33,091 nt of DNA from a virus: UHGV virus genome UHGV-0073014; one strand, 5' to 3'. Below are positions 50 through 28,682 of the stretch, piece by piece. Under the pieces are notes generated by a model. The model worked only from the letters and a program-made list of their open reading frames with translations, made no database searches and had not been told where the DNA came from. The position numbers and the translations under genes are program-made. Within the stretch, counting starts at the first letter, position 1, and every line of letters begins with the position of its first letter.

Positions 50-1150
50 TCATTCCATTTCGAAATCATCAATCCTCACTTCAAGCTCCAGACTGGTCGT
101 AAAACCGTTATCCGGGCTGACGGTATGTGTCAGAGTCGTAATGGTCCATTCCGCATCATCTATCGGCGGTTTAAAGCCGCTGACCTTCACAGGCATTTCC
201 GTGTAGAGATCTGCCCGACCTTCCGCCAGTTGTAGCGAGAATGACGCAACGCCGCGTTGCAGGCGTTCCCACTGCATTTTCGCTGCCCGTTCAGCGTTGC
301 TCCGGTTGGCATAAGTGCGATTAAGTACCAGCACGTTTTTATCCGTACCCACCAGGTAATCGCCCTGCTTCGCTTCCGGCTCATTCTTCTGCTTCTTAGT
401 TCTGCGCTTACGCTTCACCGTGGTACTTTCTTTCTTCGCAGGTTCGCGGGTATGCAACCAGCTGGCAATTACGCCCGTGTAGGCTCCGCGATCTGCCAGG
501 GTAAAGCGGTGACTGTCGCCGTCCTTGCGTGTGATAGTGATCACTGGCAGTGGTTTACCAGTGGCGCTTTTGCCCTGCCCCTGCCGGATGAATAACAGAT
601 TGCCATTTTTCACCGACGCGATGGCACCGTACTGTCGCGCCAGCCGCATCAGAAAACTGCCGTCACTCTCATTAGTCTGGTCTATATGCTCCACGGGCTT
701 ATCCGACAGGTCTTTACCCAGTGCCATCTTCAGCTTGTGCCGCGCGGCTATTTCCTTCACCACTTCCCCGACGGTGGTCTTGTGCCACGACTTTTCACGA
801 CGGGTATTCAGCGTTTCCCGAAAATCAGCACTTCGCGCCCGGATAGTCAGGCGGTCCGGTGCGCCAGTGTGTTCAATCTCGTCCACCGTGAATGCCCCTT
901 TCGGGAAAAGCGGCTGCCCCTTCCAGCCCAGCGCCAGCGTAATGACCGCACCACGGCGCGGCAGCACGATTTTTCCGTCGGCGTCGTCCAGCTCCAGATC
1001 AAGCTGGTCTGCGTCAAAGCCCCGGTTATCCGTCAGCGTCAGCCCCATCAGGCGGTTGTCCAGCACAGTGGTGATATCCCTGCCTTCAATACTGATGCTG
1101 AATGCCGGAGTTTTGTTGCCTTTGTTAAGCAGTTCAGAGCTGAAATTCAC
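50..1150 (-). CDS. D: tail protein D (P2 gpD-like)
   Basis: 366 aa ORF at the position of P2 D, immediately downstream of U; translation recognised as gpD-like from memory. Confidence 0.85.
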   Translation of the reverse strand: MNFSSELLNKGNKTPAFSISIEGRDITTVLDNRLMGLTLTDNRGFDADQLDLELDDADGKIVLPRRGAVITLALGWKGQPLFPKGAFTVDEIEHTGAPDRLTIRARSADFRETLNTRREKSWHKTTVGEVVKEIAARHKLKMALGKDLSDKPVEHIDQTNESDGSFLMRLARQYGAIASVKNGNLLFIRQGQGKSATGKPLPVITITRKDGDSHRFTLADRGAYTGVIASWLHTREPAKKESTTVKRKRRTKKQKNEPEAKQGDYLVGTDKNVLVLNRTYANRSNAERAAKMQWERLQRGVASFSLQLAEGRADLYTEMPVKVSGFKPPIDDAEWTITTLTHTVSPDNGFTTSLELEVRIDDFEME

Positions 1151-1632
1151 GACAGCAGCCCTCCCACCGTTTTACTGATATCGTTTAATGCAGACGTTGC
1201 CGTATCCTGCAGATTATTCAGCTGTGCACTGAGATCACCGAACATATCGGACAGGGATTCATCTACCCGTTTTAGCGACAGAGTGAACTCAATCCGGCGC
1301 GGCATACCGTCGCGGAAAAACTCCGTTTTAGTCTGATTCAGTCCCTCAATCACATACATGCCGTAAATCGTGCCGCTGCCTTCAATCAGGGGCCATGCTT
1401 TTCCCTGTTCTGCCATCTGCTCCAGTGCCAGCAACGACAGCCTGCCGCCTGTTATCTCCGGCATCAGAACACCAGAAAGCGTCAGCATGTCGTTATCCGG
1501 TCCCAGAAACTGCGTTGACGGGCGTCGGTTAACCCGGCTGTTAGCCGCATGTCGCCAGCTGCGCTGATACTGCAGCTCCTGATACGGCACGGTGCGCAGC
1601 ATAAACACGTACAATCCCAGCACCATCATCAT
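1147..1632 (-). CDS. U: tail protein U (P2 gpU-like)
   Basis: 161 aa ORF, N-terminus MMMVLGLYVFMLRTVPYQELQ resembles P2 gpU; 4-nt overlaps with the D start and the T stop. Confidence 0.85.
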   Translation of the reverse strand: MMMVLGLYVFMLRTVPYQELQYQRSWRHAANSRVNRRPSTQFLGPDNDMLTLSGVLMPEITGGRLSLLALEQMAEQGKAWPLIEGSGTIYGMYVIEGLNQTKTEFFRDGMPRRIEFTLSLKRVDESLSDMFGDLSAQLNNLQDTATSALNDISKTVGGLLS

Positions 1633-4600
1633 GCGTCGTATCCCCCCTGATCGCTGTAGTTACTCCTGGCTTTTGCCTTCAGCCTGCGTTCACGTTCATC
1701 AAGCTGGCGGGCCACCTCCCGCGCAATATCCTGCGCACTTTGTCCTGGCTGCGTCTGAATGATGATCTGCGTCGGTGCCTCAATCCGTTGAACGGGCGGC
1801 ACAGTGGCTGCACGACTCACCATCGCTTCGCCGCCTTTCGCGGGAAGTGCCAAAGGATGTAACGGTGGAAGCTCTGTAGGCGCGGCAGCAACGCCCATCA
1901 TTCCGGCAACAACCGCAGCCAGTGCAGCGGTATTTCTCCGGCTGGTCACGTTTGCCGGGCCGTTGACAATTTCCGGCCCGTTTTCACCGACGATGCCAAA
2001 CTGCCCGCGCGGGATATAGCCGCCGCTGTCATACATCCCCGCAAAGCCATATCCCCATGACGGAAAACCACCCGATGGCATCATCACTTTACCGTCTGCA
2101 TTCACCGTCGCAGGTTGCTGACGCGTCACGCTTTCCGGCAGTTTCGCCTTTGCAGCCTCTTTACTGACAATGCCGAGCTTCTCCAGCAACCAGGAAACAC
2201 CGGATTTCAGGGAGTCCAGCGGATGCATGACCATATTCAGCCCTTCCGCCAGTGCCTCCCCGAATCGTCGCCCCATTGCCGCTGCGCTCTGCAGTTCGGC
2301 AGAGGTCGACTTAACGGGCGTCAGCAGATCAGTAAACCAGCCCCACAGCGCCTGTACTTTGTCGCCAATCCACTGAAACACAGGCTTAAGTGGTTCGAAT
2401 GCAGCACTGATGGGACCTGCCGCCGCTTTGAATCCTTCCACCACGCCACCGAGAAATGCGGTGATGGGTTGCCAGTATTTCCAGACAACCAGCGCCACAC
2501 CCGCCAGTGCAGTAACCACAAGACCTATCGGACTGAGCAGAGCACCTAACAGACCAGATATGGCATACAGGGCAACGCGCAGCATCGCCAGCGGACCAGA
2601 TGCAAGCACACGAAGCACCGCGCCTGCGGCAGACAAAGTACCCCCCCCCCGGCGCCAGCCAGTCCACCGCGCAGTACCGCCAGAGGATTCATAAACATCA
2701 CAGCAACAGCACGTAAAGCGGATAATCCAGACCGCAATAGTGCAACCGGCGCACCTGCTACAGTTTTCAGGACATTTCCCGTCAGTGATGCCGTACGGCG
2801 CAAAGACGACAACGGCGCAGTAAGTAAACCCGCTGCGTTACCCGATGAAGCAAGCCCGCGTCGCAGCACTGCCAGTGGAGCGCCAGCCAGCCAGGACAAC
2901 GCGCTGCTGGTTCGTGTTACTGCTGCCGTAACGGAAGGGAACGTTTTTATGCCCAGCACAGAGAATCCCAGACGGATGACTGCCAGCGGCCCCAGCACTG
3001 CAGCCAGCGCCACAGCCAAGGTGCCGAGGCCTACGGTAACCGCAGCCACAATAGCGGCTACTTTCATCAGTGTGCCCGTCAGTTCCGGGTTAGCTTCGAC
3101 CCAGCGACGCAACGCTCCCGTAACGCTTTTCACCGTGTACAGAATATCCATCAGCGGCTGGCGCAGCGTTTCGCCCAGGCTGCTGAAGGTATTCTGCGCT
3201 CCGGTTTTAACCAGCAACCACTGAGCAGAAAGTGAGTCCTTGTTGATGTCGGATTCTTTCTGCATGGAGCCGAGCGCATCATTGCCCGCTGTCAGTTTTA
3301 GCTGGCGCTGTAGTTCCGGCAGGTTGTTTGCCAGTTTCGCCGCGTCATCGCCAAACTCTTTACCAAACAACATGGTCATGGCAGACAGACGCTTGTCCTG
3401 CGGCAGTGCGTTTACCTTCTCCAGCACGCGCTGGATGGTTCCCATCGCATCCTTCGTCATCTGCTTTTCAATCACTTCAGGATTGAGTTTCAGCAGATTC
3501 ATCCCTTCAAAGAAACTCTTGCTTTGCATGGTGGCAATGGACAATTCACGCACCATCGCGTTTGCTGCACTGGCTGCAACCTCTGGCGCAGCGCCCAGTG
3601 TCAGGAAGGTGGAACCCAGCGCCGCCGCTTTACGATAATCCAGACGGTCAGCCACACCGCCCAGACGTTGCATCACATCAATGATGTCTGCCCCTTTCGA
3701 CATGGCGTTATCATCCAGATAGTTCAGCGCATCACCGAGCTGTTCAATATTGCGGGTGGGGATTTTGTAGAGCTGGGCGATTTTCCCCAGACTTTCTGAC
3801 AGTTCATCCGCTGGCAGCTCAAAGGCTGTTGCCGCCTTTGCTGCCGTACTGGCGAAGGCCAGCAGGTCACGTTTCTGATCTTCCCAGCTGTCGTCAGGGT
3901 TTGCGACGTTCATGCGCGCACCACCTTCAACCAGTGCAGCGAAGTCCACCGCACCGTTTTCCATCGGCAACTGTTCGCTGGCAGCCTTGATGGCATCCTG
4001 CATTTCATAAAAACGTGCAGTGCGGTTGCCATTATCGTCACGCAGACCATTGACCTGCTTTGCCACACCTTTCATGGCATCTTCCATGCTGGTATAGCTT
4101 TTTACTGCCGCCATCACTGGCGCACCCATTGCCAGCCCTGCAGCCGTGGTGGTGGCTCCGGCACCTGCAATACGATCACGCACCTCCAGCGAACGGGCAT
4201 AACTGGCACGCGCTGCATTCATCCTGCGCTGAGCTTCCCCCAGTCGCTTCAGCCGCGCCTCCTGTTTCGAAAGTTCCTGGTTATAACGTGATGTTTCACG
4301 GGCTAAACGGGCAGTTGCTCCCGCATCGTCTTTCGCAGAAATTCCCGCCCGGTACAGTTCAGCACGCACAAGCGCCGTCTGCTGCTGCAGCTTTTTCTGG
4401 CGTTCTTCCAGGCGCTGAACAGCCAGCCGTTGACGGCCCAGAGCAACAACCTGACGTTGCGAAGGCGGCCCCATCGCTCCCAGTTCCTGACTGAGCAAAT
4501 TTGCACGCTGGCGGGCATAGTTCAGCCTGTCGCCTAATTTCTGATTTTCTGCCTGCAGCTTTCGGAAGCTGTCCAGACTGCTCCCGGCCTGATCAAGCTG

Positions 4601-4732
4601 CTTTATTGCATCGCGGGATTTTTTGACAGCAGCAGCCAGTTCTCTTGAACTGGCCTGCGCAGATCGAAATGGGCGGGTGAGCTTGTCAACCGCATTAAGA
4701 ATGACCTGCAGACGCAGGTTGTTATCACTCAT
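1629..4732 (-). CDS. T: tail tape measure protein (gpT-like), reading frame broken at a G10 homopolymer
   Basis: Two long minus-strand ORFs (2546..4732 and 1629..2636) in different frames meet at the C10 run 2641..2650; coiled-coil-like N-terminal part and Gly/Ala-rich C-terminal part typical of tape measure; start overlaps the E' stop. Confidence 0.8.
2641..2650. repeat. C10/G10 homopolymer at the tape-measure frameshift point
   Basis: Ten consecutive C on the plus strand; removing 2 bases or adding 1 would join the two T reading frames. Confidence 0.95.
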
Positions 4733-4904
4733 CGTTGGCCCCGCTTCTCTGAATCGCTTTATACCGCCATTCCAGCACTTCGGTCAGCGGCATAACGTCA
4801 GTAACGGATGGCGGCCAGTGAAAAATGGTGGCGATATCTGCCACCAGATCGTCAACCGTCAGGCTGTCGGTAAACCGGCAAGCACCGACTTCTTCAACAA
4901 AAAA
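4725..4904 (-). CDS. E': E' extension, read after a -1 programmed frameshift from E (E+E' fusion spans 4725..5161)
   Basis: Slippery heptamer T-TTT-TTG on the coding strand (plus 4898..4904) in the correct phase; the -1 frame stays open to a TGA at 4725..4727, which overlaps the T start codon. Confidence 0.7.
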   Translation of the reverse strand, partial: FFVEEVGACRFTDSLTVDDLVADIATIFHWPPSVTDVMPLTEVLEWRYKAIQRSGANDE

Positions 4905-5161
4905 GTGACAACCTCAACCGACATGGCAGTGAGATCTGCCGGGTCCATCTCTGCAATTTCCTGTGCAGTCAGTGCCGGACTGGAGATGCGGGGGATCACG
5001 GTCATCATCGCGTTTACATCCATATCCATAATGGCCTGCAGGCGTGTACCGCGCAGCGCACCGGACTGCGGTTTACGCAGCACAATTTCGGTGATTTCTG
5101 TTTTACCGCGCTTGATGGGGGTATCCAGTTGAATGGTCTTTTCAGTCTGCTTATCGCTCAT
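4859..5161 (-). CDS. E: tail assembly chaperone E (P2 gpE-like)
   Basis: 100 aa ORF between FII and T, the position and size of P2 E. Confidence 0.85.
   Translation of the reverse strand: MSDKQTEKTIQLDTPIKRGKTEITEIVLRKPQSGALRGTRLQAIMDMDVNAMMTVIPRISSPALTAQEIAEMDPADLTAMSVEVVTFLLKKSVLAGLPTA
4898..4904 (-). other. -1 ribosomal frameshift slippery site T TTT TTG
   Basis: Coding-strand sequence ACT TTT TTG TTG read directly; known P2 E/E' mechanism. Confidence 0.7.
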
Positions 5162-5215: not shown

Positions 5216-5731
5216 TCAGAGGCCGAGGGCGTTGCGGTGCGCTTCCATCAGGTCCACACCGTCCACAATTTCCACCATGTTGATAAGGTCCACTTCATAG
5301 AGCACCTCACCATTGATGGTCAGCTTCGCGTAGCTGTTGGTACTGGTCACTTTGGTGGTGTTGCTTTCGCCCGTCTTCCACTCGCCGGAATCCACTTCTT
5401 TGTGACGTCCACGCACGACAAGCTCCACGGCCTGCACTTCCCCGGTATCGTCACGCTGAATAGAGCCGGTAAAGCGCAGCTGGATGCCATCCACCGTGGC
5501 TTTACCCATCTGTTTAAACAGCAGCAATTCAGTACCACCAATGGAAAATTCTGTGTCCAGCGCACTGTCATCAAGCCCCAGATCCACATCCACCGCACCC
5601 GGCATTCCGCCGCCGCGATACTTCTCATATTTGCGGGTAAATTTCGGCAGCGTCAGCGACTCAACGATCCCCTGCCAGTTGTTCCCGTCGTTAAACAGGT
5701 TCAGGTGTTTTAATTTGCGTGGTAAAGCCAT
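5216..5731 (-). CDS. FII: tail tube protein FII
   Basis: 171 aa ORF directly downstream of the sheath gene, P2 FII-like. Confidence 0.85.
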   Translation of the reverse strand: MALPRKLKHLNLFNDGNNWQGIVESLTLPKFTRKYEKYRGGGMPGAVDVDLGLDDSALDTEFSIGGTELLLFKQMGKATVDGIQLRFTGSIQRDDTGEVQAVELVVRGRHKEVDSGEWKTGESNTTKVTSTNSYAKLTINGEVLYEVDLINMVEIVDGVDLMEAHRNALGL

Positions 5732-5740
5732 GTTGTCCCC

Positions 5741-6913
5741 TTACGCGCTGACCTGGCTGGCGAAATTCACCAGGTACTGATCGGTGATGCGCTGACGCAG
5801 CATCAGGTTTTCAAGTGGCGGCACTGGCGTGTAGTCGTAGTCGATGGTGAGTTTTCCGGCTTTCAGCGTGTCTTTGTCGTTCACCGACTCATCCAGCCAG
5901 CAATCACCACCAATGAGATAGCCCTGACTGACCAGGCTGCGCATTTTGGCGCGGATACCTTCGATAATGTCGCGGGCCAGCGACGGGTTAAGCGGTTTAT
6001 CCACCGCCCACATGTGTGCTTCTGCCATCGTGTCCATCAGCACCTGCGCCGTGCGGGTGTAGTTTTCGAAGGCAAAGAGCGGGTCATCACTCAGGCAGCG
6101 GGAACCCCAGAAGCGGAAACCGTCTTTACGCACAAGCGTGGTGACGTCGTTCTGGTTCAGCAGACCTGCATCGGTTGCCGGGTCCTGCAGATCCCAGAAC
6201 ACATCTGCAGAAATTCCGGTGACACCGTTCACGCCCACGTTGGACAGGCTTTTGTGCCATCCGGTCTGCTCGTCAATTTTGGCGCGCAGACCAAGCGCAC
6301 GGGCGGTGGCATATGCCGTTGCTTCGGCATTCAGCACCGTGTCCCAGCCAGTAAAGTCAGGCCAGATCAGCATCCCTTCGCGCTGGCTGAAGTTTTCACG
6401 GTAAGTGATTGCTTCCTGCACCGTCTTGCAACCATACGCTGACAGGTAAGCAAACCCACGCAGGCTTTGCGCCACGCTCAGCAACTCAGTAGCTACCGCC
6501 TTGGTGTCGTGGCCTGGCACGCCGAGAATGCGCGGTTTAACGCCGAGCTGTGACTGGGCAGATAACAGGGCTTTCATACCTGTTTTTTTACCTTCAGCAG
6601 TCACTGCGCCGATGATATTGGTCGTGGTTTCTTCTTCCGTTTCACCCTGCGGTACACGCACAACAACGGTCACGGGTTTTGCCTGGTCAGCGATGGCATC
6701 CAACGAGCGGGCCAGTGTGCCGGACTCACCCGCTTTACCGCTCGCAGTCAGCACATCAGTGATCAGCACAGGTTTATTAAGAGGAAACATTTTTGCATCG
6801 GCATCATCGCCCGTGCAGACCATACCCACGATGGCGGTGCTCACCGTGGTAATGGATCGGGTGCCTTCGTTGACTTCAACAACACGCACCCCGTGGTGGT
6901 AATCCTGAGCCAT
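5741..6913 (-). CDS. FI: tail sheath protein FI
   Basis: 390 aa ORF, P2 FI-like, first gene of the FI-FII-E-T-U-D block. Confidence 0.9.
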
Positions 6914-7064: not shown

Positions 7065-7622
7065 TTAATTGCTCTTATTCGCCGGAAATTTTCTATAAAT
7101 GGTAGAAACGCCCACATCAAAAATCAGTGCAATACGCTGTCTTGATTCTCCAGCCTCAAGTAAACGCCCAATCTGTGCCCACTGTTCAGCTGTCAACTTA
7201 GGACGGCGTCCACCTACTCTACCTTTAGCACGAGCTGCAGCCAGCCCCGCCCTGGTACGTTCAACTATCAGTTCGCGTTCCATTTCAGCCAGGGCACCCA
7301 TGACATGAAAAAAGAAACGGCCCATTGGGGTGCTGGTATCAATACTGTCAGTCAGGCTTCGGAAATTCACGCCACGCTGGCGCAGCTCTTCTATCAGCGT
7401 AACGAGATGCCGCATACTGCGCCCCAGTCTGTCCAGCTTCCAGACAACCAGCGTGTCTCCTGCCGATAGTGTCCTGAGCAGCTTTTTCAGCCCCGGTCTG
7501 TCGGACTTGGTGCCACTGATTTTATCCTCAAAAATCCGCTCACATCCCGCGCAGTTCAGTGCATTACGTTGCAAATCGGTGTTCTGGTCATTTGTTGACA
7601 CGCGTACATAGCCAATAAGCAT
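7065..7622 (-). CDS. serine DNA invertase (Gin/Pin/Hin/Cin family)
   Basis: 185 aa, N-terminus MLIGYVRVSTNDQNTDLQ with the catalytic Ser context, C-terminal HTH; sits just outside an inverted-repeat-bounded segment. Confidence 0.95.
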   Translation of the reverse strand: MLIGYVRVSTNDQNTDLQRNALNCAGCERIFEDKISGTKSDRPGLKKLLRTLSAGDTLVVWKLDRLGRSMRHLVTLIEELRQRGVNFRSLTDSIDTSTPMGRFFFHVMGALAEMERELIVERTRAGLAAARAKGRVGGRRPKLTAEQWAQIGRLLEAGESRQRIALIFDVGVSTIYRKFPANKSN

Positions 7623-7624
7623 AA

Positions 7625-7632
7625 CCCCCCCC
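7625..7632. repeat. C8/G8 homopolymer 2 nt upstream of the invertase start codon
   Basis: Coding strand reads GGGGGGGG-TT-ATG. Confidence 0.9.
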
Positions 7633-7688
7633 TGAATAAAAACCGGAGATGATGCCAGTTAGCCGTTATCTCTGCATTTTCATAAACG

Positions 7689-7722
7689 TTGGTTTGGGAG
7701 AAGCGGCAAAACGGAATGTAGG
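7689..7722. repeat. left inverted repeat / invertase crossover site
   Basis: TTGGTTTGGGAGAAGCGGCAAAACGGAATGTAGG, exact reverse complement of 9236..9269; encodes the shared motif [11 protein letters not shown]. Confidence 0.85.
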
Positions 7723-8056
7723 TAACGGGCAAAACCAAATTCCGGATATGGCGGCGTTTGCCAGTTCACTTTCATCAACGGGTTTTCAAAAACTCCCTTC
7801 AGGTCTGATTATTCAGTGGGGTATTGTCAGTGGAGCATCAAACTATACGGTGACTTACCCGGTAACATTCCCAAATCGTTCACTTGCGCTGTTGGCTGTG
7901 CCACATACAACGTCGGTGGCTAGTATATCTGCAATGGGCATAGCGAACTGTTCTGATATCAGCAAATCACAGTTCTATATAATTGTTGGCGGTATATCTC
8001 AGGGAGAAATTGTCAAACATGAAAGGTCCTGTTTTTGGGTAGCAATCGGTGTATAG
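7723..8056 (+). CDS. alternative (currently unexpressed) tail-fibre C-terminal module
   Basis: Open frame continuing from the crossover motif ([10 protein letters not shown]...) parallel to the H C-terminus (GTGENQIPDM...); no promoter or start of its own. Confidence 0.7.
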
Positions 8057-8064
8057 GTATATCT

Positions 8065-8460
8065 ATGATTTATTTCTCAAAATCGACTAATGGTTTTTTC
8101 TTTGATGGTATAAACAGCGGCATGCCTGCTGACATTGTTGAGATAAGTACAGACTTATACAATGAATTAATTGCCGGACAGCAGGAAGGGGGTAAATTAA
8201 TCACGTCAGATGAAAATGGTTTACCGGTACTGAAATCTCCGGCGATTGATTATGTCGCACGTGCTGAAAATCAGCGAATGCAGTTACTTGCTCATGCCGA
8301 TAATGTCACAGCTGACTGGCGGGTGGAATTAATGCTTGGTGATATCAGCAGTACAGATAAAGAAAAACTATCTGCCTGGATGGACTACAAAAAAGAAGTA
8401 AAAGCCGTCGACACTTCGACGGCTCCTGAGATTAGCTGGCCTGAGTTACCGGAGATGTAG
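8065..8460 (+). CDS. tail-fibre assembly protein, partner of the alternative module
   Basis: About 131 aa; C-terminal DTSTAPEISWPELP motif shared with the convergent gene 8432..8875. Confidence 0.7.
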   Translation: MIYFSKSTNGFFFDGINSGMPADIVEISTDLYNELIAGQQEGGKLITSDENGLPVLKSPAIDYVARAENQRMQLLAHADNVTADWRVELMLGDISSTDKEKLSAWMDYKKEVKAVDTSTAPEISWPELPEM

Positions 8461-8875
8461 GCCATTCAATATCTGGAGCACTGGAGGTATCCACCAGTTC
8501 CAGTGCGTCCAGGTAATCCAGCCACAAATTATATTGCGCCAGTTCCTCACCTTTCAGACGACCAATAGCTGCTTTGCCAGGCCATTGCTTACTGTTCATG
8601 TATTCGTTAGCCTGGTTAATTAGTAGCTGTCTTTCTGATTCAGTAATTTCAATAAGCTCTTCATGCGTGGGTGGAGGAATATCTGCCCACGCAGGCAGCC
8701 CATCATCTCCGGCAATACGGATTTTTCCTTGTGGCGGTTCAGCCATAAACTCACTGATAATATTTTGATTTACTTCCTTTGCGTCTGATAAATCCCATCC
8801 CTCTGATTTATATTTATCAATCATATCCACAGGGAAAAAAGCATTATGCCTTGCGCTATAAACATATTTGTGCAT
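8432..8875 (-). CDS. tail-fibre assembly protein (gpG-like), expressed orientation
   Basis: Directly downstream of H; conserved C-terminal motif DTSSAPDIEWP. Confidence 0.8.
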   Translation of the reverse strand: MHKYVYSARHNAFFPVDMIDKYKSEGWDLSDAKEVNQNIISEFMAEPPQGKIRIAGDDGLPAWADIPPPTHEELIEITESERQLLINQANEYMNSKQWPGKAAIGRLKGEELAQYNLWLDYLDALELVDTSSAPDIEWPTSPVTQAS

Positions 8876-8895
8876 ATAAATCACCCTGAATAAAA

Positions 8896-10317
8896 TTACT
8901 CACCAACAGCCCACCAACTGTAATTCATCGATACTGTGGAGCTGGTTGATGCAGTTCTGTAAGCGGAATTAAAACCGGTTAGTGTTGGACCTTCTGCAGT
9001 CATCACGAATCCCCGTCCAGCGCCTAAAGGCGCACCACCATCACCAGAATGGGTAAGCATGGCGCAGTCCACTTTTTTAGGAAAAGGGATGCTGAATGTA
9101 ATTCTCATTGTTTGCGTCGATAATGTCGGCGTAATCGCACCACGACCATATTGCAGGATTTTCCCGTTGGGTAATTTCATCCATCCATCACCACTGGCAA
9201 AAGAGGTCATGTCCGGTATCTGATTTTCCCCTGTTCCTACATTCCGTTTTGCCGCTTCTCCCAAACCAAGGTATGTGAGAAGACCAGCTACATCCTTTCC
9301 ACTCAAATTAGTCAGCGTATTGTCCAGCGGTTGTTTACCTGCCAGCGCATTAAGCATTGTCGTGGCAAAGTTCGGGTCATTCCCCAGCGCTGCCGCCAGT
9401 TCGTTCAGTGTATCCAGTGCCGCAGGTGCAGAGCCCACCATTGCCGCAATCGCCGATTTCACAAAAGCCGTAGTGGCAATCTGTGTATTGTTGACCGACT
9501 GCGCCGCCGTGGGGGCTGTTGGCGTTCCGGTGAGTGCCGGACTCGACAACGGTGCTTTTAGTGCCAGCGCATTGTTAATGGTGGTACTGAAATTCGGATC
9601 ATTGTTAATGGCTGCGGCTATTTCTTTCAGCGTGTCCAGCGTGGCTGGCGCACCATTAATAAGGGCCGTCAGTGCCGCCTGTACAAACGCAGTGGTCGCA
9701 ACCTGCGTGGTATTATTCCCCGCCGCTGGCGTTGGCGCTTTTGGTTCTCCGGTAAATGTCGGATTATGTTTCTGCGCATACTGGGTATGAGGATCTTGTG
9801 CGGCAATGTGGTTTCTCATCTGGTCATCCACATACAGCTTTAATTCCAGGACTTTATCATCCACGTATTTACGGGTTGCCAGCACTACAGCAGGGTCGAT
9901 TTTCAGGATGATATTGTCCGTGCTGCTGGTAATCAGCACCATGCGCACGGTCTGGGTACGCCCGCTGCCTTCAGCCAGTTGCGGCTTATAGCTTTCCGGG
10001 CAGTTTCCCACGGCAATCAATGCCCCGGACTCATCAAACAGGCCCACTTCACGTATCCACCAACCGCCCTCGTTTTCAGGGATCACCTGTTCAGCAATAA
10101 TCTGGCTACTGTTCTGCGGGTCGATATAAAGCATATTCAGCGCAGCCCGGCGTTTCTCATTTACCAGTGCCGTCTGCTTTGCGTCCGGCGTTGGCAATAC
10201 TCCGCCGCCATCGCCCACCGCCATATGGGTAATTTTTAGCGGCACACCGAGCGCGGCGGCGCTGGCAAGTTTCGCCGCGCCAATATCCGTCAGCAGGGTA
10301 TAAAATTTTGTGCTCAT
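8896..10317 (-). CDS. H: tail fibre protein H (constant N-terminal part 9270..10317, variable C-terminal part inside the invertible segment)
   Basis: 473 aa ORF with a Thr/Ala-rich repetitive fibre region; the crossover repeat lies in-frame. Confidence 0.9.
   Translation of the reverse strand: MSTKFYTLLTDIGAAKLASAAALGVPLKITHMAVGDGGGVLPTPDAKQTALVNEKRRAALNMLYIDPQNSSQIIAEQVIPENEGGWWIREVGLFDESGALIAVGNCPESYKPQLAEGSGRTQTVRMVLITSSTDNIILKIDPAVVLATRKYVDDKVLELKLYVDDQMRNHIAAQDPHTQYAQKHNPTFTGEPKAPTPAAGNNTTQVATTAFVQAALTALINGAPATLDTLKEIAAAINNDPNFSTTINNALALKAPLSSPALTGTPTAPTAAQSVNNTQIATTAFVKSAIAAMVGSAPAALDTLNELAAALGNDPNFATTMLNALAGKQPLDNTLTNLSGKDVAGLLTYLGLGEAAKRNVGTGENQIPDMTSFASGDGWMKLPNGKILQYGRGAITPTLSTQTMRITFSIPFPKKVDCAMLTHSGDGGAPLGAGRGFVMTAEGPTLTGFNSAYRTASTSSTVSMNYSWWAVGE
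9236..9269. repeat. right inverted repeat / invertase crossover site
   Basis: Exact reverse complement of 7689..7722, inside the tail-fibre H coding sequence. Confidence 0.85.
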
Positions 10318-21588: not shown

Positions 21589-22650
21589 TTAATATTCAAA
21601 ATTATTTTCTTCAATAGAGAACTCAATCCCTCGGGATAACTTATCAATATTCACATCAAATGCGATATCTGTTAATTCACCATCCTCGATTTCATACATA
21701 ACTTCAATTTCAATATCGAAACTAATCTCTTGAACTTCAGTTCGTGTGGTTGTCTCCATTGGAATCATTACTTTATCTTCGCTATCCCAATACCCATTAT
21801 TAAAGTCTGGACCAGAAACAGTAACTTCAAAATCTACAGAAACAGAGAAGGTCGCTAGACAATAATTATTGTTAATCTTAATTATTGATGGTTCAAAGTC
21901 ATCAATATTGACGACTTCAAATGAATCCAATTCAGCGTCTTCCCAAGTTGAAACGTTATATCCATCGGCATCATTGAGTTGGGCAATTACGTCCGCTCTT
22001 ATGTCTTCACGTTTGCTTTCGATAAACTGCATCAATTTATTACTTAATTCGTTTGTATGCGTATTGTATTCACCTAGAAACTTATCAAGTGAATCAATTT
22101 GATGAAGATTGTTTTTACCATCACAATAATTTTTTAAGTCACTATCCTCAGAAATGATATACACATCTTCATCATTAACAAATCGCTCTACCGCAGCTAA
22201 AGTGATTGCATCAGGAAACTCACTTTTTTTCTTATTTTGCCCAAATGGTGGTTCTTTGCCAAAGTATTTATCTAAAACCTCATTAAGATCTATTACTTCT
22301 ATTGTAGCTAATTTGGCGTGACATCCTTTCAAAAAATCATCAAAAACTTTTTGTGCTGCTTCGTGAATTTCATGTTCGTTAAATTGCTGAAAAAAACCAT
22401 GGAGCGGTCCATTATCAATACTATTCAAAAGCCTAGCTTTTCTTTGTACTGTGTTTATAGCCTGCAGAGCATCCTTTATTGATTCCTCTATTTTACCTTT
22501 TACTTCTCTCTCTACAACTGTAGTTGTAATTAAGACTAAATCACCTTTCGCACATAATTCATGGAAAGCTTTAAATGCTACCCCCTCAAAATGAAGACCA
22601 GCCTTTACGTACGTTTGTGTGTCAATAAATACCTTATTTGTTTTAAGCAT
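21589..22650 (-). CDS. PIN-like-domain protein with acidic beta-rich C-terminal domain; candidate defence/cargo gene
   Basis: 353 aa; N-terminus KVFIDTQTYV...LVLITTTVVEREVKGKIEE...EFPDAITLAAV...DVYIISEDSD fits a PIN-like nuclease pattern (conserved D, E, D); AT-rich; sits between portal Q and cos; candidate sigma70 promoter TTGATT-N17-TAATCT upstream. Confidence 0.6.
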   Translation of the reverse strand: MLKTNKVFIDTQTYVKAGLHFEGVAFKAFHELCAKGDLVLITTTVVEREVKGKIEESIKDALQAINTVQRKARLLNSIDNGPLHGFFQQFNEHEIHEAAQKVFDDFLKGCHAKLATIEVIDLNEVLDKYFGKEPPFGQNKKKSEFPDAITLAAVERFVNDEDVYIISEDSDLKNYCDGKNNLHQIDSLDKFLGEYNTHTNELSNKLMQFIESKREDIRADVIAQLNDADGYNVSTWEDAELDSFEVVNIDDFEPSIIKINNNYCLATFSVSVDFEVTVSGPDFNNGYWDSEDKVMIPMETTTRTEVQEISFDIEIEVMYEIEDGELTDIAFDVNIDKLSRGIEFSIEENNFEY

Positions 22651-22977: not shown

Positions 22978-23697
22978 TTAGCCAAAGCAGAAACCAATAT
23001 TGCAATTTGAAACTCCACAGTTGTGAAATTGATGTGGACCGACTCTTAGCTTGTGTTCGTCTCCTACAATCCGAGTCCCCTTAACCAACATATCTAATCT
23101 TTCCACAATCAATCTTTCAGGCGCATCAACTTTAATAATTAAACGAGGACCTTTCCTTTTTTCTATAATAGTTATTCTAGGACCGACAACCTGAACATCC
23201 CAATGCCTTGCACTACATACCCACTCATTCTTAATTAATTCAAGATTAACAATACCTTGACTATCGTAAAATTTACCCGAAATAAGAAAAGCATTATTTT
23301 CTTTTTCAATGGTTAACAATGGCTCATTTTGAAACATTATTGGTACAGTACAGGATTCAAACGTCGCACCACCAAATATTATTGTTGGATGCCTATCAGA
23401 AAAGTCCAATATATCGGCCACATTCCCTTTTTGTAAGGCTGCAGGAGATTCCATTGCTTTAATGATTTTCTCTTTAGAGTAAAGACGTTTCGTTACTTTC
23501 GCATGACACGTAGGACAAAGTAGTGCTATTGCATTTGGAGAGTGCTCCTTTGCATCAGCGTATGTGGGAATTACATGCTCATACTCAACAATGGGAGAAG
23601 CACAAACAACGCAACCGAAGCCACAGCGCTGCCTTACCTCCAGTTTTACAGGTTCAGGAATTGTTCTAGATAACCCATGCTTGTTAATAGTTGTCAT
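22978..23697 (-). CDS. HNH-endonuclease-domain protein with unknown C-terminal domain; candidate defence gene
   Basis: 239 aa; CGFGCVVC...EYEHVIP...NAIALLCPTCHAKVTK fits the HNH zinc-finger nuclease motif; AT-rich; SD AAGGTAAGG before the ATG; lies between the SOS operon and cos. Confidence 0.65.
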   Translation of the reverse strand: MTTINKHGLSRTIPEPVKLEVRQRCGFGCVVCASPIVEYEHVIPTYADAKEHSPNAIALLCPTCHAKVTKRLYSKEKIIKAMESPAALQKGNVADILDFSDRHPTIIFGGATFESCTVPIMFQNEPLLTIEKENNAFLISGKFYDSQGIVNLELIKNEWVCSARHWDVQVVGPRITIIEKRKGPRLIIKVDAPERLIVERLDMLVKGTRIVGDEHKLRVGPHQFHNCGVSNCNIGFCFG

Positions 23698-26777: not shown

Positions 26778-27607
26778 TACGCAATCTCCAGTTCGAGCTG
26801 TGAAGGCTGCAAACCATTCGACAGCCAATCAGAAACTGAAGGTGGGCGAACAGCTTCAATTGCACCTTTTAAAATTGCGCAACGGTTTTTCAGAATGACA
26901 GCTTTCAGCTCCTTTTCCGTCAGATTGCGCGAATACTCAGCCTCCTGAATAGCCCGCGTCAGCTCAGGATATTTGCTATTAAATTTGGGGACATTGCAGG
27001 CAAGATTTGTACTGTCGGCAGTCGCCAGTGGGTAATTTCCCAACACACGACCGTCAAGCATGCGCAAACCATGAACAGCTGTTTTGAAATTGTGTCGGCA
27101 ATAAATTGCTTCAAAAGCGTCCTGCATACGACGATGCCAGTGCGCAGTTCTGATAGCCGCATATTCACCAGACGATCCAAAGCAGACACGAGGCCATTCA
27201 CGACATAGCTCGATAAGCCGATCGATTGACTCGTGCATATGCCAGACGGGAGTTGCCTTCCCGTAGAACATTTTCGGAACTTCGTTTATCAGGGCATCAT
27301 TGTCACGTTCACCTCCGTCCACAACATCAGGAATGACAAAAAAAGCGACCTTAGGATGGTGGTAATAGTTCAGGAGCCATTTATAAAAATCACTCCAGTT
27401 AATTTTTAGCCCACGCACCCATGCAGAAAATGCGCCGTTATCAATGCCGACGACCTGAGCGTGCTGAATGGACGCCGCAATCTGATCTGGTCGTACATAG
27501 GAGACGAAAGCGCCAGCTCCGCTCACCGCAATACGATGAACGTCGCCAGCACTTCCCCAGACAGGCGTCCCATGGAAATGATGAATTCCGTGGTGCATTT
27601 CTTTCAC
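26777..27607 (-). CDS. hypothetical protein, possible TGT/DpdA-like DNA-modifying enzyme
   Basis: 276 aa; local motifs PVWG...[12 protein letters not shown]...[10 protein letters not shown]...AVHGL loosely resemble the tRNA-guanine transglycosylase barrel (PVGT, DSGGF, GVG); translationally coupled to dam. Weak, unverified. Confidence 0.3.
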
Positions 27608-28458
27608 ACTTGCACCCCGAAAATAACAGTAGAGTCACGTCCCCTACTAAAATCGGCACTAAACCAATTAGCAGATTTAGTGGCAATCATCTCTGTTGCA
27701 AATTTTCCCTCCCCCGCTGCAACGCCGATGCTGCGTTTCGCCCTGATGTAGTGGTGAGTGAAATTACGATAAAGGGACCGGGTCAAAGACGTGTTACTGT
27801 TAGAAACAATGACCGGATGTCCTTCTGATGACCGATGTTCAAGAATGGATGCCAGGTGATACTGATCATCTTCAGTGAAACCATCAGTGTGATAGCCGGA
27901 AAACGTACCGTCATAAGGCGGATCGCAATACACCACATCCCCCACCTTCAACATCGCCAGCGTTTCATCAAAGCTGGCGCAGATAAACGTTGCCCGCTGG
28001 GCTTTCTCTGCAAATGCGCGAATTTCTTTTTCAGGGAAATACGGATTTTTATAATTACCGTAGGGAATGTTGAAATGTCCGCTCTTGTTATAGCGACATA
28101 AACCACGGTAACCGTGACGATTGAGATACAGGAAATATACCGCTTTCATGAAATCAGTAATTTCAGTGGAGTAATTAAACTCCTGCCTTATGTTGTAATA
28201 AGCTACCTCCCTGTTTGCTTCCTCAAATAAAGCTCTGGCACGAGATATAAACGCCTCACAATCAGCAGCAACCTTTTTATAGAGGTTGATTAAATCAGGA
28301 TTAATATCCGCAACAAGATAGCTGGGGTAATCCGTCTCCATCATCACTGCACAGGAACCCGCGAAAGGTTCAACCAGTCGCGGGCCAGCAGGAAGATGCT
28401 TTTTCAGTTCGGACATTATGGCGGTTTTATTTCCTGCCCATTTCAGGATGGTGCTCAT
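27604..28458 (-). CDS. dam: DNA adenine methyltransferase (Dam-like)
   Basis: ILKWAGNK near the N-terminus and a DPPY catalytic motif; start at MSTILKW overlaps the upstream stop. Confidence 0.9.
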
Positions 28459-28682
28459 ACAGCACCTCCGTTGTAATGTTTGCCTTTCAGCTCTGCGATT
28501 TCCTGACAGGTAATGCAAAGCTGCACACCCGGAATGGCACGGCGGCGTGCTGGCGGAATTGGCGCTTCACACTCAACGCAAAGCACGCGGGACACGCCCG
28601 GCATTTTGGCACGGGCAGCACGGATATGGCGTTGGCGTTCTTCTTCAACGCGCTGCTGTACGAGATCCATTGCATCAGCCAT
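28455..28682 (-). CDS. TraR/DksA-family C4 zinc-finger protein
   Basis: 75 aa with CVEC-x16-CITC, as in phage TraR-like proteins. Confidence 0.75.
   Translation of the reverse strand: MADAMDLVQQRVEEERQRHIRAARAKMPGVSRVLCVECEAPIPPARRRAIPGVQLCITCQEIAELKGKHYNGGAV

Follow-up and report, generated by a model that had tools for sequence, protein, structure and literature searches.

The window examined here, a 33,091-nucleotide stretch of the virus genome UHGV-0073014 taken at its full length, carries between its tail tube and tape-measure genes what is very probably the programmed −1 ribosomal frameshift site of the tail assembly chaperone gene E/E′ in a P2-like prophage (Peduoviridae, Wadgaonvirus/Fels-2-type). 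The anatomy of the site and the homology of both parts of its product are matters of direct observation. That ribosomes slip in this copy, how efficiently they would do so, and which partners each protein domain would bind, we infer by analogy with better studied phages. The E/E+E′ frameshift of P2-like phages is already known, and in this respect the locus is an ordinary one.

The genes of the site lie on the minus strand (Table 1). Their order in the window, as assigned with Pfam and PHROGs, is sheath, tube, E/E′ and tape measure, which places the pair between FII and T of an operon of the FI-FII-E-T-U-D type; the downstream ORFs 1147..1632 and 50..1150 are presumably U and D, judging from annotated relatives. 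The E reading frame begins with ATG at 5161 and ends with TGA at 4861..4859, giving 100 codons plus the stop. Within it, the TTTTTTG heptamer (4904..4898) is made up of the final T of codon 86 (ACT), then TTT as codon 87 and TTG as codon 88, the latter 13 codons from the E stop at codon 101. The post-slip −1 frame has GTT at 4898 as its first codon, so that base 4898 (G) is read twice in the slip product, and continues for 57 sense codons to the TGA at 4727..4725; in the upstream direction, the open −1 frame is limited by a TGA at 4916..4914. The predicted E+E′ fusion is 145 aa long, reading ...VEVVTFL up to the junction, continuing with VEEVGACRFTDSL and ending in RSGANDE. Its predicted junction tryptic peptide is ISSPALTAQEIAEMDPADLTAMSVEVVTFLVEEVGACR, with an F-L-V junction, and the zero-frame counterpart of this peptide is ...VVTFLLK.

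An earlier sequence-only reading of this DNA had described most of this geometry. It gave the site as T-TTT-TTG in X-XXY-YYZ phase 13 codons before the E stop, which our recomputation returned exactly, and of its coordinates, 4725-4904, the former is precisely where the E′ stop ends and the latter where the heptamer begins. The open −1 frame of about 58 codons that it reported corresponds to the 57 sense codons together with the stop. It erred, however, in describing the E′ stop as overlapping the tape-measure start in an ATGA arrangement: the ATG of T (4732..4730) lies 3 nt before the start of the E′ stop codon and has no bases in common with it, and in the sequence ATGAGTGA (gATGAGTGAt) the stop falls over T codons 2-3, resulting in an 8-nt overlap of the two genes.

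Table 1. Positions of the E/E′ locus, its neighbouring tail genes and the candidate stimulatory elements in the window
Feature	Position	Strand	Basis or remark
Gene E, zero-frame tail assembly chaperone	4859..5161	-	ORF; Phage_TAC_7; phrog_103
Slippery heptamer T_TTT_TTG in X_XXY_YYZ phase	4898..4904	-	computed phase
E′ −1-frame extension, 57 codons + TGA	4725..4898	-	translation; PF06528
Dual-coding overlap, E and −1 frames both open, 55 nt	4859..4913	-	
39-codon ORF from GTG 4844	4725..4844	-	separate gene in pipeline annotation
SD-like GAGGT, candidate stimulator	4911..4915	-	6 nt upstream of heptamer
Candidate hairpin GUCGGU...ACCGAC	4866..4889	-	begins 8 nt downstream of heptamer
Tape-measure gene T, N-terminal 728-aa ORF	2546..4732	-	PF10145; phrog_28 at 6e-162
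Tail tube gene FII, directly upstream of E	5216..5731	-	PF04985 Phage_tube, 201.7 bits
Tail sheath gene FI	5741..6913	-	PF04984, PF17482, PF22671; phrog_23 'tail sheath'

The heptamer by itself carries little weight. The 39 non-overlapping ORFs of the window (10,178 codons) contain 34 in-phase X_XXY_YYZ heptamers, approximately one per 300 codons, and a single one in a 100-codon gene is therefore unremarkable. A −1 frame that stays open for at least 57 codons is found at only 5% of codon positions in the window ORFs. What decides against chance is the −1 product itself, a recognisable protein that matches a curated family at E = 4e-19.

Both parts of the fusion can be assigned to known families. 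Zero-frame E matches PF10109 (Phage_TAC_7, 'tail assembly chaperone proteins E...') with 67.5 bits against a cutoff of 25, as well as phrog_103 'tail protein' at 4e-44, and the 57-residue extension, taken alone, matches PF06528 (Phage_P2_GpE) with 68.2 bits against a cutoff of 23; among the PHROG tail families, 103, 1756 and 6416 match the E/E′ products. The exact E protein is present on at least 1000 public contigs, where it is named 'phage tail assembly protein'. NCBIfam models gave no match to the fusion, and a PDB search with a profile of eight fusion proteins returned nothing up to E = 1. For the comparison with P2 we used our own reconstruction of its E+E′ sequence, which agrees with the published 91 aa of E, 142 aa of E+E′, 37-nt overlap and TTTTTTG heptamer (PMC3091744, PMC3931495). 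BLASTP aligned the extension with P2 residues 86-142 at 31/57 identities (54%), gapless from the first post-slip residue through to the C-terminus, and zero-frame E likewise aligns with the E protein of P2. The sequence-only reading had identified the site with the P2 E/E′ frameshift, proposing an alignment of the −1 product with P2 E′ as a check and naming a lack of similarity between the extension and the E′ of relatives as what would speak against it. That similarity is present and favours the identification, with which PF10109, PF06528, the TTTTTTG heptamer and the position between tube and tape-measure genes all fit.

The arrangement is widespread among relatives. At the DNA level, the region and Escherichia phage 500465-1 (Wadgaonvirus, Peduoviridae) are 99.9% identical. 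Queried by tblastn, the fusion reached 419 phage records, with query coverage of 80% or more in 386; among the matches listed, all those with full coverage came in two pieces, that is, in two reading frames. We then compared 15 diverse Peduoviridae loci, drawn from Peduovirus, Felsduovirus, Kapieceevirus, Firavirus, Aptresvirus, Eganvirus, Aresaunavirus, Reipivirus, Senquatrovirus, Baylorvirus, Xuanwuvirus and a Vibrio phage. In every one of them (15/15) E′ is read in the −1 frame with respect to E, and the overlap contains an in-phase X_XXY_YYZ heptamer. Its position is homologous in the fusion alignment throughout, except in the Mannheimia phage, where it is found further downstream, after an insertion. 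The heptamer is TTTTTTG in 10/15 loci; the remainder have C_CCT_TTC (Klebsiella phage ST16-OXA48phi5.4, NC_049450.1), A_AAT_TTT (Escherichia phage 503458, CP025874.1), G_GGA_AAG (the Mannheimia phage, NC_047750.1, whose own record mentions a slippery sequence), T_TTT_TTT (the Vibrio phage, PQ189388.1) and T_TTT_TTC (one Yersinia phage, OM046624.1). A scan of IMG/VR added 80 further loci with 72 unique sequences, 58-97% identical in protein and of the same geometry throughout, in which the heptamer was TTTTTTG in 66/72 and TTTTTTA in 6/72. Retention of the X_XXY_YYZ pattern while its letters change is the signature of selection for tandem slippage, and the comparative set offers an example of a nucleotide pattern (X_XXY_YYZ) being selected, not one particular sequence.

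These variant heptamers also bear on an alternative in which the ribosome does not shift at all. In transcriptional slippage, RNA polymerase would stutter on the T6 run and produce mRNAs one U short that are then translated normally. The slip site does hold a homopolymeric run of six T, and bacterial RNA polymerases are known to slip on long A or T runs (PMC5009743), but the documented runs are about 9 nt long (PMC5009743) compared with 6 here. The C_CCT_TTC, A_AAT_TTT and G_GGA_AAG heptamers, mostly located at the homologous site, fit tandem re-pairing of tRNAs and not a stuttering polymerase, to which the strictly kept X_XXY_YYZ phase would be irrelevant. We consider this explanation exceedingly improbable.

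Constraint on the slip site is visible at the nucleotide level too. Entropy was computed at the E-frame third positions of 73 unique sequences, and its mean was 0.83 bits over codons 2-85, 0.14 bits over codons 86-88 and 0.26 bits over the dual-coding codons 89-100. At ACT (86), whose third position is fourfold degenerate, and at TTT (87), the third base showed zero variation in these 73 sequences; directly upstream, Val codons 82, 84 and 85 have H = 1.0-1.5 bits, and only 6/78 degenerate upstream codons have an invariant third base. Because the −1 frame is untranslated upstream of the slip, the slippery-site requirement alone explains the frozen synonymous sites. The heptamer is under purifying selection as a nucleotide sequence.

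This constraint is one of several observations that are difficult to reconcile with E′ being an independent 39-aa gene, initiated at GTG 4844 without any frameshift. In favour of such a gene, the −1 frame has a GTG at 4844..4842, NC_049342.1, CP019275.1 and RefSeq E. coli records carry the 39-aa ORF as an annotated gene, the exact 39-aa sequence occurs on ~994 contigs as 'GpE family phage tail protein', and the PF06528 match begins exactly at the GTG 4844 residue. However, this sole in-frame start lacks a Shine-Dalgarno sequence (−3.0 kcal/mol versus a background median of −3.1), and the homologous codon is not a start in phages of Ralstonia (Ala), Mannheimia (Ile) or Vibrio (Tyr). Conservation with P2 extends 18 residues upstream of the GTG codon, to the slip junction, and includes a V/I-D/E-D motif, and an independent start would leave the frozen synonymous sites of the heptamer unexplained. 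In P2, moreover, no ribosome binding site precedes E′, which is synthesised as a continuation of E (PMC3931495). We therefore hold an independent E′ gene to be very unlikely, and the 39-aa ORF is most likely only the C-terminal part of E+E′.

A more trivial origin of the two frames, namely a sequencing indel or a pseudogenising mutation in the T run of what was a single E gene, deserves mention in view of the neighbouring gene. Homopolymer runs are prone to indels, and the tape-measure gene in the same window carries a suspicious frame-breaking G10 segment. At the slip site, though, independent and complete E. coli genomes contain the same arrangement at 100% identity, among them the chromosomes of strains T28R and EC3; the region is present in ~1000/5426 complete E. 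coli genomes, the arrangement is shared by the 419 phage records and the 72 unique IMG/VR sequences, and the E stop 13 codons downstream is conserved. An artefact at this site is effectively refuted.

The tape-measure gene T itself (1629..4732, minus strand) is split into the 728-aa ORF 4732..2546 and a −1-frame 335-aa ORF at 2636..1629, and the cause is a frame-breaking 26-nt segment that is absent from phage 500465-1 and contains the G10 run (region 2615..2651; on the plus strand, C10 at 2641..2650). The 26-nt version in the window looks like a degraded copy of a 30-nt tandem duplication (AAGAVLRVLA x2), in frame, that E. coli F719 carries at this position. The exact G10 allele of T had no match in IMG/VR or GTDB genomes. 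Probably the segment is either an artefact of sequencing or assembly at the poly-G tract or an inactivating mutation private to this copy. An in-phase G_GGG_GGG heptamer is located at 2648, where the −1 frame is open for 337 codons; ribosomal slippage there is conceivable as an alternative. If the break were real, the prophage could not build tails, and its E/E′ site would be intact but unused.

Taking programmed −1 frameshifting as the preferred explanation of the E/E′ site, for most ribosomes translation of E (5161..4859) would end at the E stop, with release of the 100-aa chaperone, while a minority would slip one base 5′-ward on U_UUU_UUG (4904..4898). The P-site tRNA-Phe (UUU to UUU) and the A-site tRNA-Leu (UUG to UUU) would slip together and re-pair on UUU_UUU, the tRNA-Leu through its first two positions. 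Shifted ribosomes would then read GUU GAA GAA and onwards through 57 codons to the UGA at 4727..4725, yielding the 145-aa E+E′ as a product minor to E. The frameshift efficiency in P2, as Christie et al. are said to have found in 2002, is about 10%. By analogy with P2 E/E+E′ and lambda G/GT (PMC5009743), the common E part would bind the tape-measure protein and the E′ part would recruit or link the tail tube subunit, a fixed low ratio of long to short product being a likely requirement of tail assembly.

Two elements flanking the heptamer could conceivably stimulate the shift. Upstream, the anti-SD duplex of GAGGU is predicted at −6.8 kcal/mol, which is only in the top 10% of background. GAGGT is nearly invariant in 35 unique close sequences and occurs in P2, Fels-2, SEN1 and a Ralstonia phage, but is missing from several distant relatives; the third base of codon 83 (GAG) is invariant, as is true of 6/78 degenerate codons. 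As a stimulator, this SD-like element is suggestive but weak. Downstream, the fold of the 98 nt following the heptamer has a non-significant z of −1.64, and when 70-nt downstream folds were compared at 16 loci, only the closest lineage reached a z of about −2 to −2.7 (about −2.5 here), whereas z was near 0 in more distant relatives and +0.5, not better than shuffles, in P2. In the 35 unique sequences, two candidate hairpins showed one compensatory change and several disruptions, and covariation of the hairpin was not above that of shuffles, 77/500 and 70/500 of which reached the observed score. Conservation of the hairpin region is in any case uninformative, since that region is dual-coding.

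No Rfam family matched at the gathering threshold anywhere in the window. PhrS, the Rfam candidate near the slip site, was at chance level (E = 0.69) and was set aside. A downstream RNA stimulator is thus not supported by these sequence comparisons, in agreement with the P2 literature, according to which there are no hairpins downstream of the P2 site (PMC3091744). Related U-rich heptamers are less shifty than A_AAA_AAG in E. coli (PMC5009743); with U_UUU_UUG outside the most shift-prone E. coli sites and no supported stimulator, the frameshift efficiency at the E/E′ site is probably low. We regard it as unlikely, though deserving of mention, that stimulators specific to the Wadgaonvirus/Fels-2 lineage and missing from P2 tune the frameshift, the candidates being GAGGU, 6 nt upstream, and the hairpin, 8 nt downstream. 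Were they active, one would expect an E:E+E′ ratio other than that of P2, roughly 10%. In a weaker variant of this idea, the 39-aa ORF may also be expressed independently of the fusion, resulting in three products.

The scientific addition made by this copy is small, and its added value is limited to annotation. PGAP and most phage records present the C-terminal 39 codons of E′ as a stand-alone 'GpE family phage tail protein'. A collection of 15 billion proteins lacks the exact 145-aa fusion, whereas E and the 39-aa ORF are each found on ~1000 contigs. Recognising the slip site would correct the proteome of a very common E. coli/Klebsiella prophage lineage. The joined product is already annotated as 'tape measure chaperone frameshift product' in curated records of Burkholderia phages Mana and Musica, and the GenBank note of Fels-2 already states that gpE+E′ is formed by slippage. 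In the distant Peduoviridae with variant heptamers, the −1 extensions are 52-71 codons long, and several records leave E′ without annotation. On the opposite strand, an antisense ORF of 169 codons with a TTG start (4623..5132, plus strand) overlaps E/E′; it has no Pfam or NCBIfam match, was treated as spurious for this reason, and is probably a by-product of opposite-strand codon composition.

Several other features of the window were recorded in passing. A candidate invertible tail-fibre segment (7065..10317) includes a serine invertase gene (7065..7622, minus strand; Resolvase and HTH_7) that adjoins an 89-nt inverted repeat with arms at 7677..7765 and 9193..9281 (82% complementary). The repeat encloses an alternative fibre C-terminus (7649..8056, plus strand, Gp53-like_C) and an alternative fibre-assembly gene (8035..8460, plus strand), opposite to the active set of fibre gene H (8896..10317, minus strand) and its assembly gene (8432..8884, minus strand); the segment as a whole resembles a host-range switch of the Gin/Cin type. 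Non-structural genes for a PIN_12-domain protein of 353 aa (21589..22650, minus strand) and an HNH-endonuclease-domain protein of 239 aa (22978..23697, minus strand) may represent accessory or anti-phage cargo, as in P2-like hotspots. The PIN_12 gene also contains the only other in-phase TTTTTTG of the window, at 22336, where the −1 frame is open for just 15 codons. A D12-class N6-adenine DNA methyltransferase (Dam-like; PF02086 at 257 bits) is encoded at 27604..28518 on the minus strand.

That tail chaperones as a rule arise through a conserved frameshift, located between the genes for the major tail protein and the tape measure, was reportedly established in 2004. The sequence-only reading had set the site beside lambda G/GT as well as P2, and for lambda the comparison stands as an analogy of position and mechanism but not as homology, since our Pfam scan of the fusion, considered for lambda gpG/T homology, gave only PF10109 and PF06528, and the P2 and lambda chaperone pairs are without amino-acid similarity (PMC3931495). 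In lambda, a minor long and a major short product have a common N-terminus, neither is found in the virion, and their ratio is critical (Levin et al. 1993 and Xu et al. 2004, 2013 and 2014, as reviewed in PMC5009743). The slippery sequence differs between the two systems, and lambda is a siphovirus whereas P2-like phages are contractile-tailed (myovirus). Judged by its profile matches, E/E′ would thus work like G/GT but is not a member of the G/GT family.

With E. coli dnaX, the site has in common tandem slippage on an X_XXY_YYZ heptamer and an enterobacterial host. The shift site is U-rich here, compared with A_AAA_AAG in dnaX, and dnaX has an upstream SD and a downstream stem-loop where the present site has only the candidate GAGGU and the candidate hairpin at the distances given in Table 1. 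The SD element of dnaX lies about 10 nt upstream of its slip site, and a cassette of the dnaX type would be expected to have a conserved 3′ stem-loop or pseudoknot 5-9 nt downstream. The efficiency of the dnaX frameshift is about 50% (PMC5009743).

The closest comparisons are with phages of the same family. The gpE-like protein and gpE+E′ of the Salmonella phage Fels-2 are 87% identical in protein and of identical geometry, and essentially no difference at the slip site separates the window from either Fels-2 or phage 500465-1; the record of 500465-1 and the RefSeq E. coli records have two separate CDS and no joined product. For P2, accounts in PMC3091744 and PMC3931495 credit the experimental demonstration of the E/E+E′ frameshift to Christie et al. 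in 2002 (J Bacteriol 184:6522), and the heptamer at which P2 slips is TTTTTTG (PMC3091744). Identity to P2 is 48% over the fusion (tblastn) compared with 54% over E′. P2 E has 91 aa rather than the 100 aa found here, the zero frame continuing for 7 codons past the A-site codon in P2 and for 13 in the window, and the overlap is consequently 55 nt here versus 37 nt in P2. In P2 the E′ stop likewise falls over the first T codons, within ATGAGTAA as opposed to ATGAGTGA here. Between P2 gpE/gpE+E′ of the FETUD operon and the site described here, the heptamer, its phase, the −1 direction of the shift, the position between FII and T, and the 57-codon length of the extension are the same.
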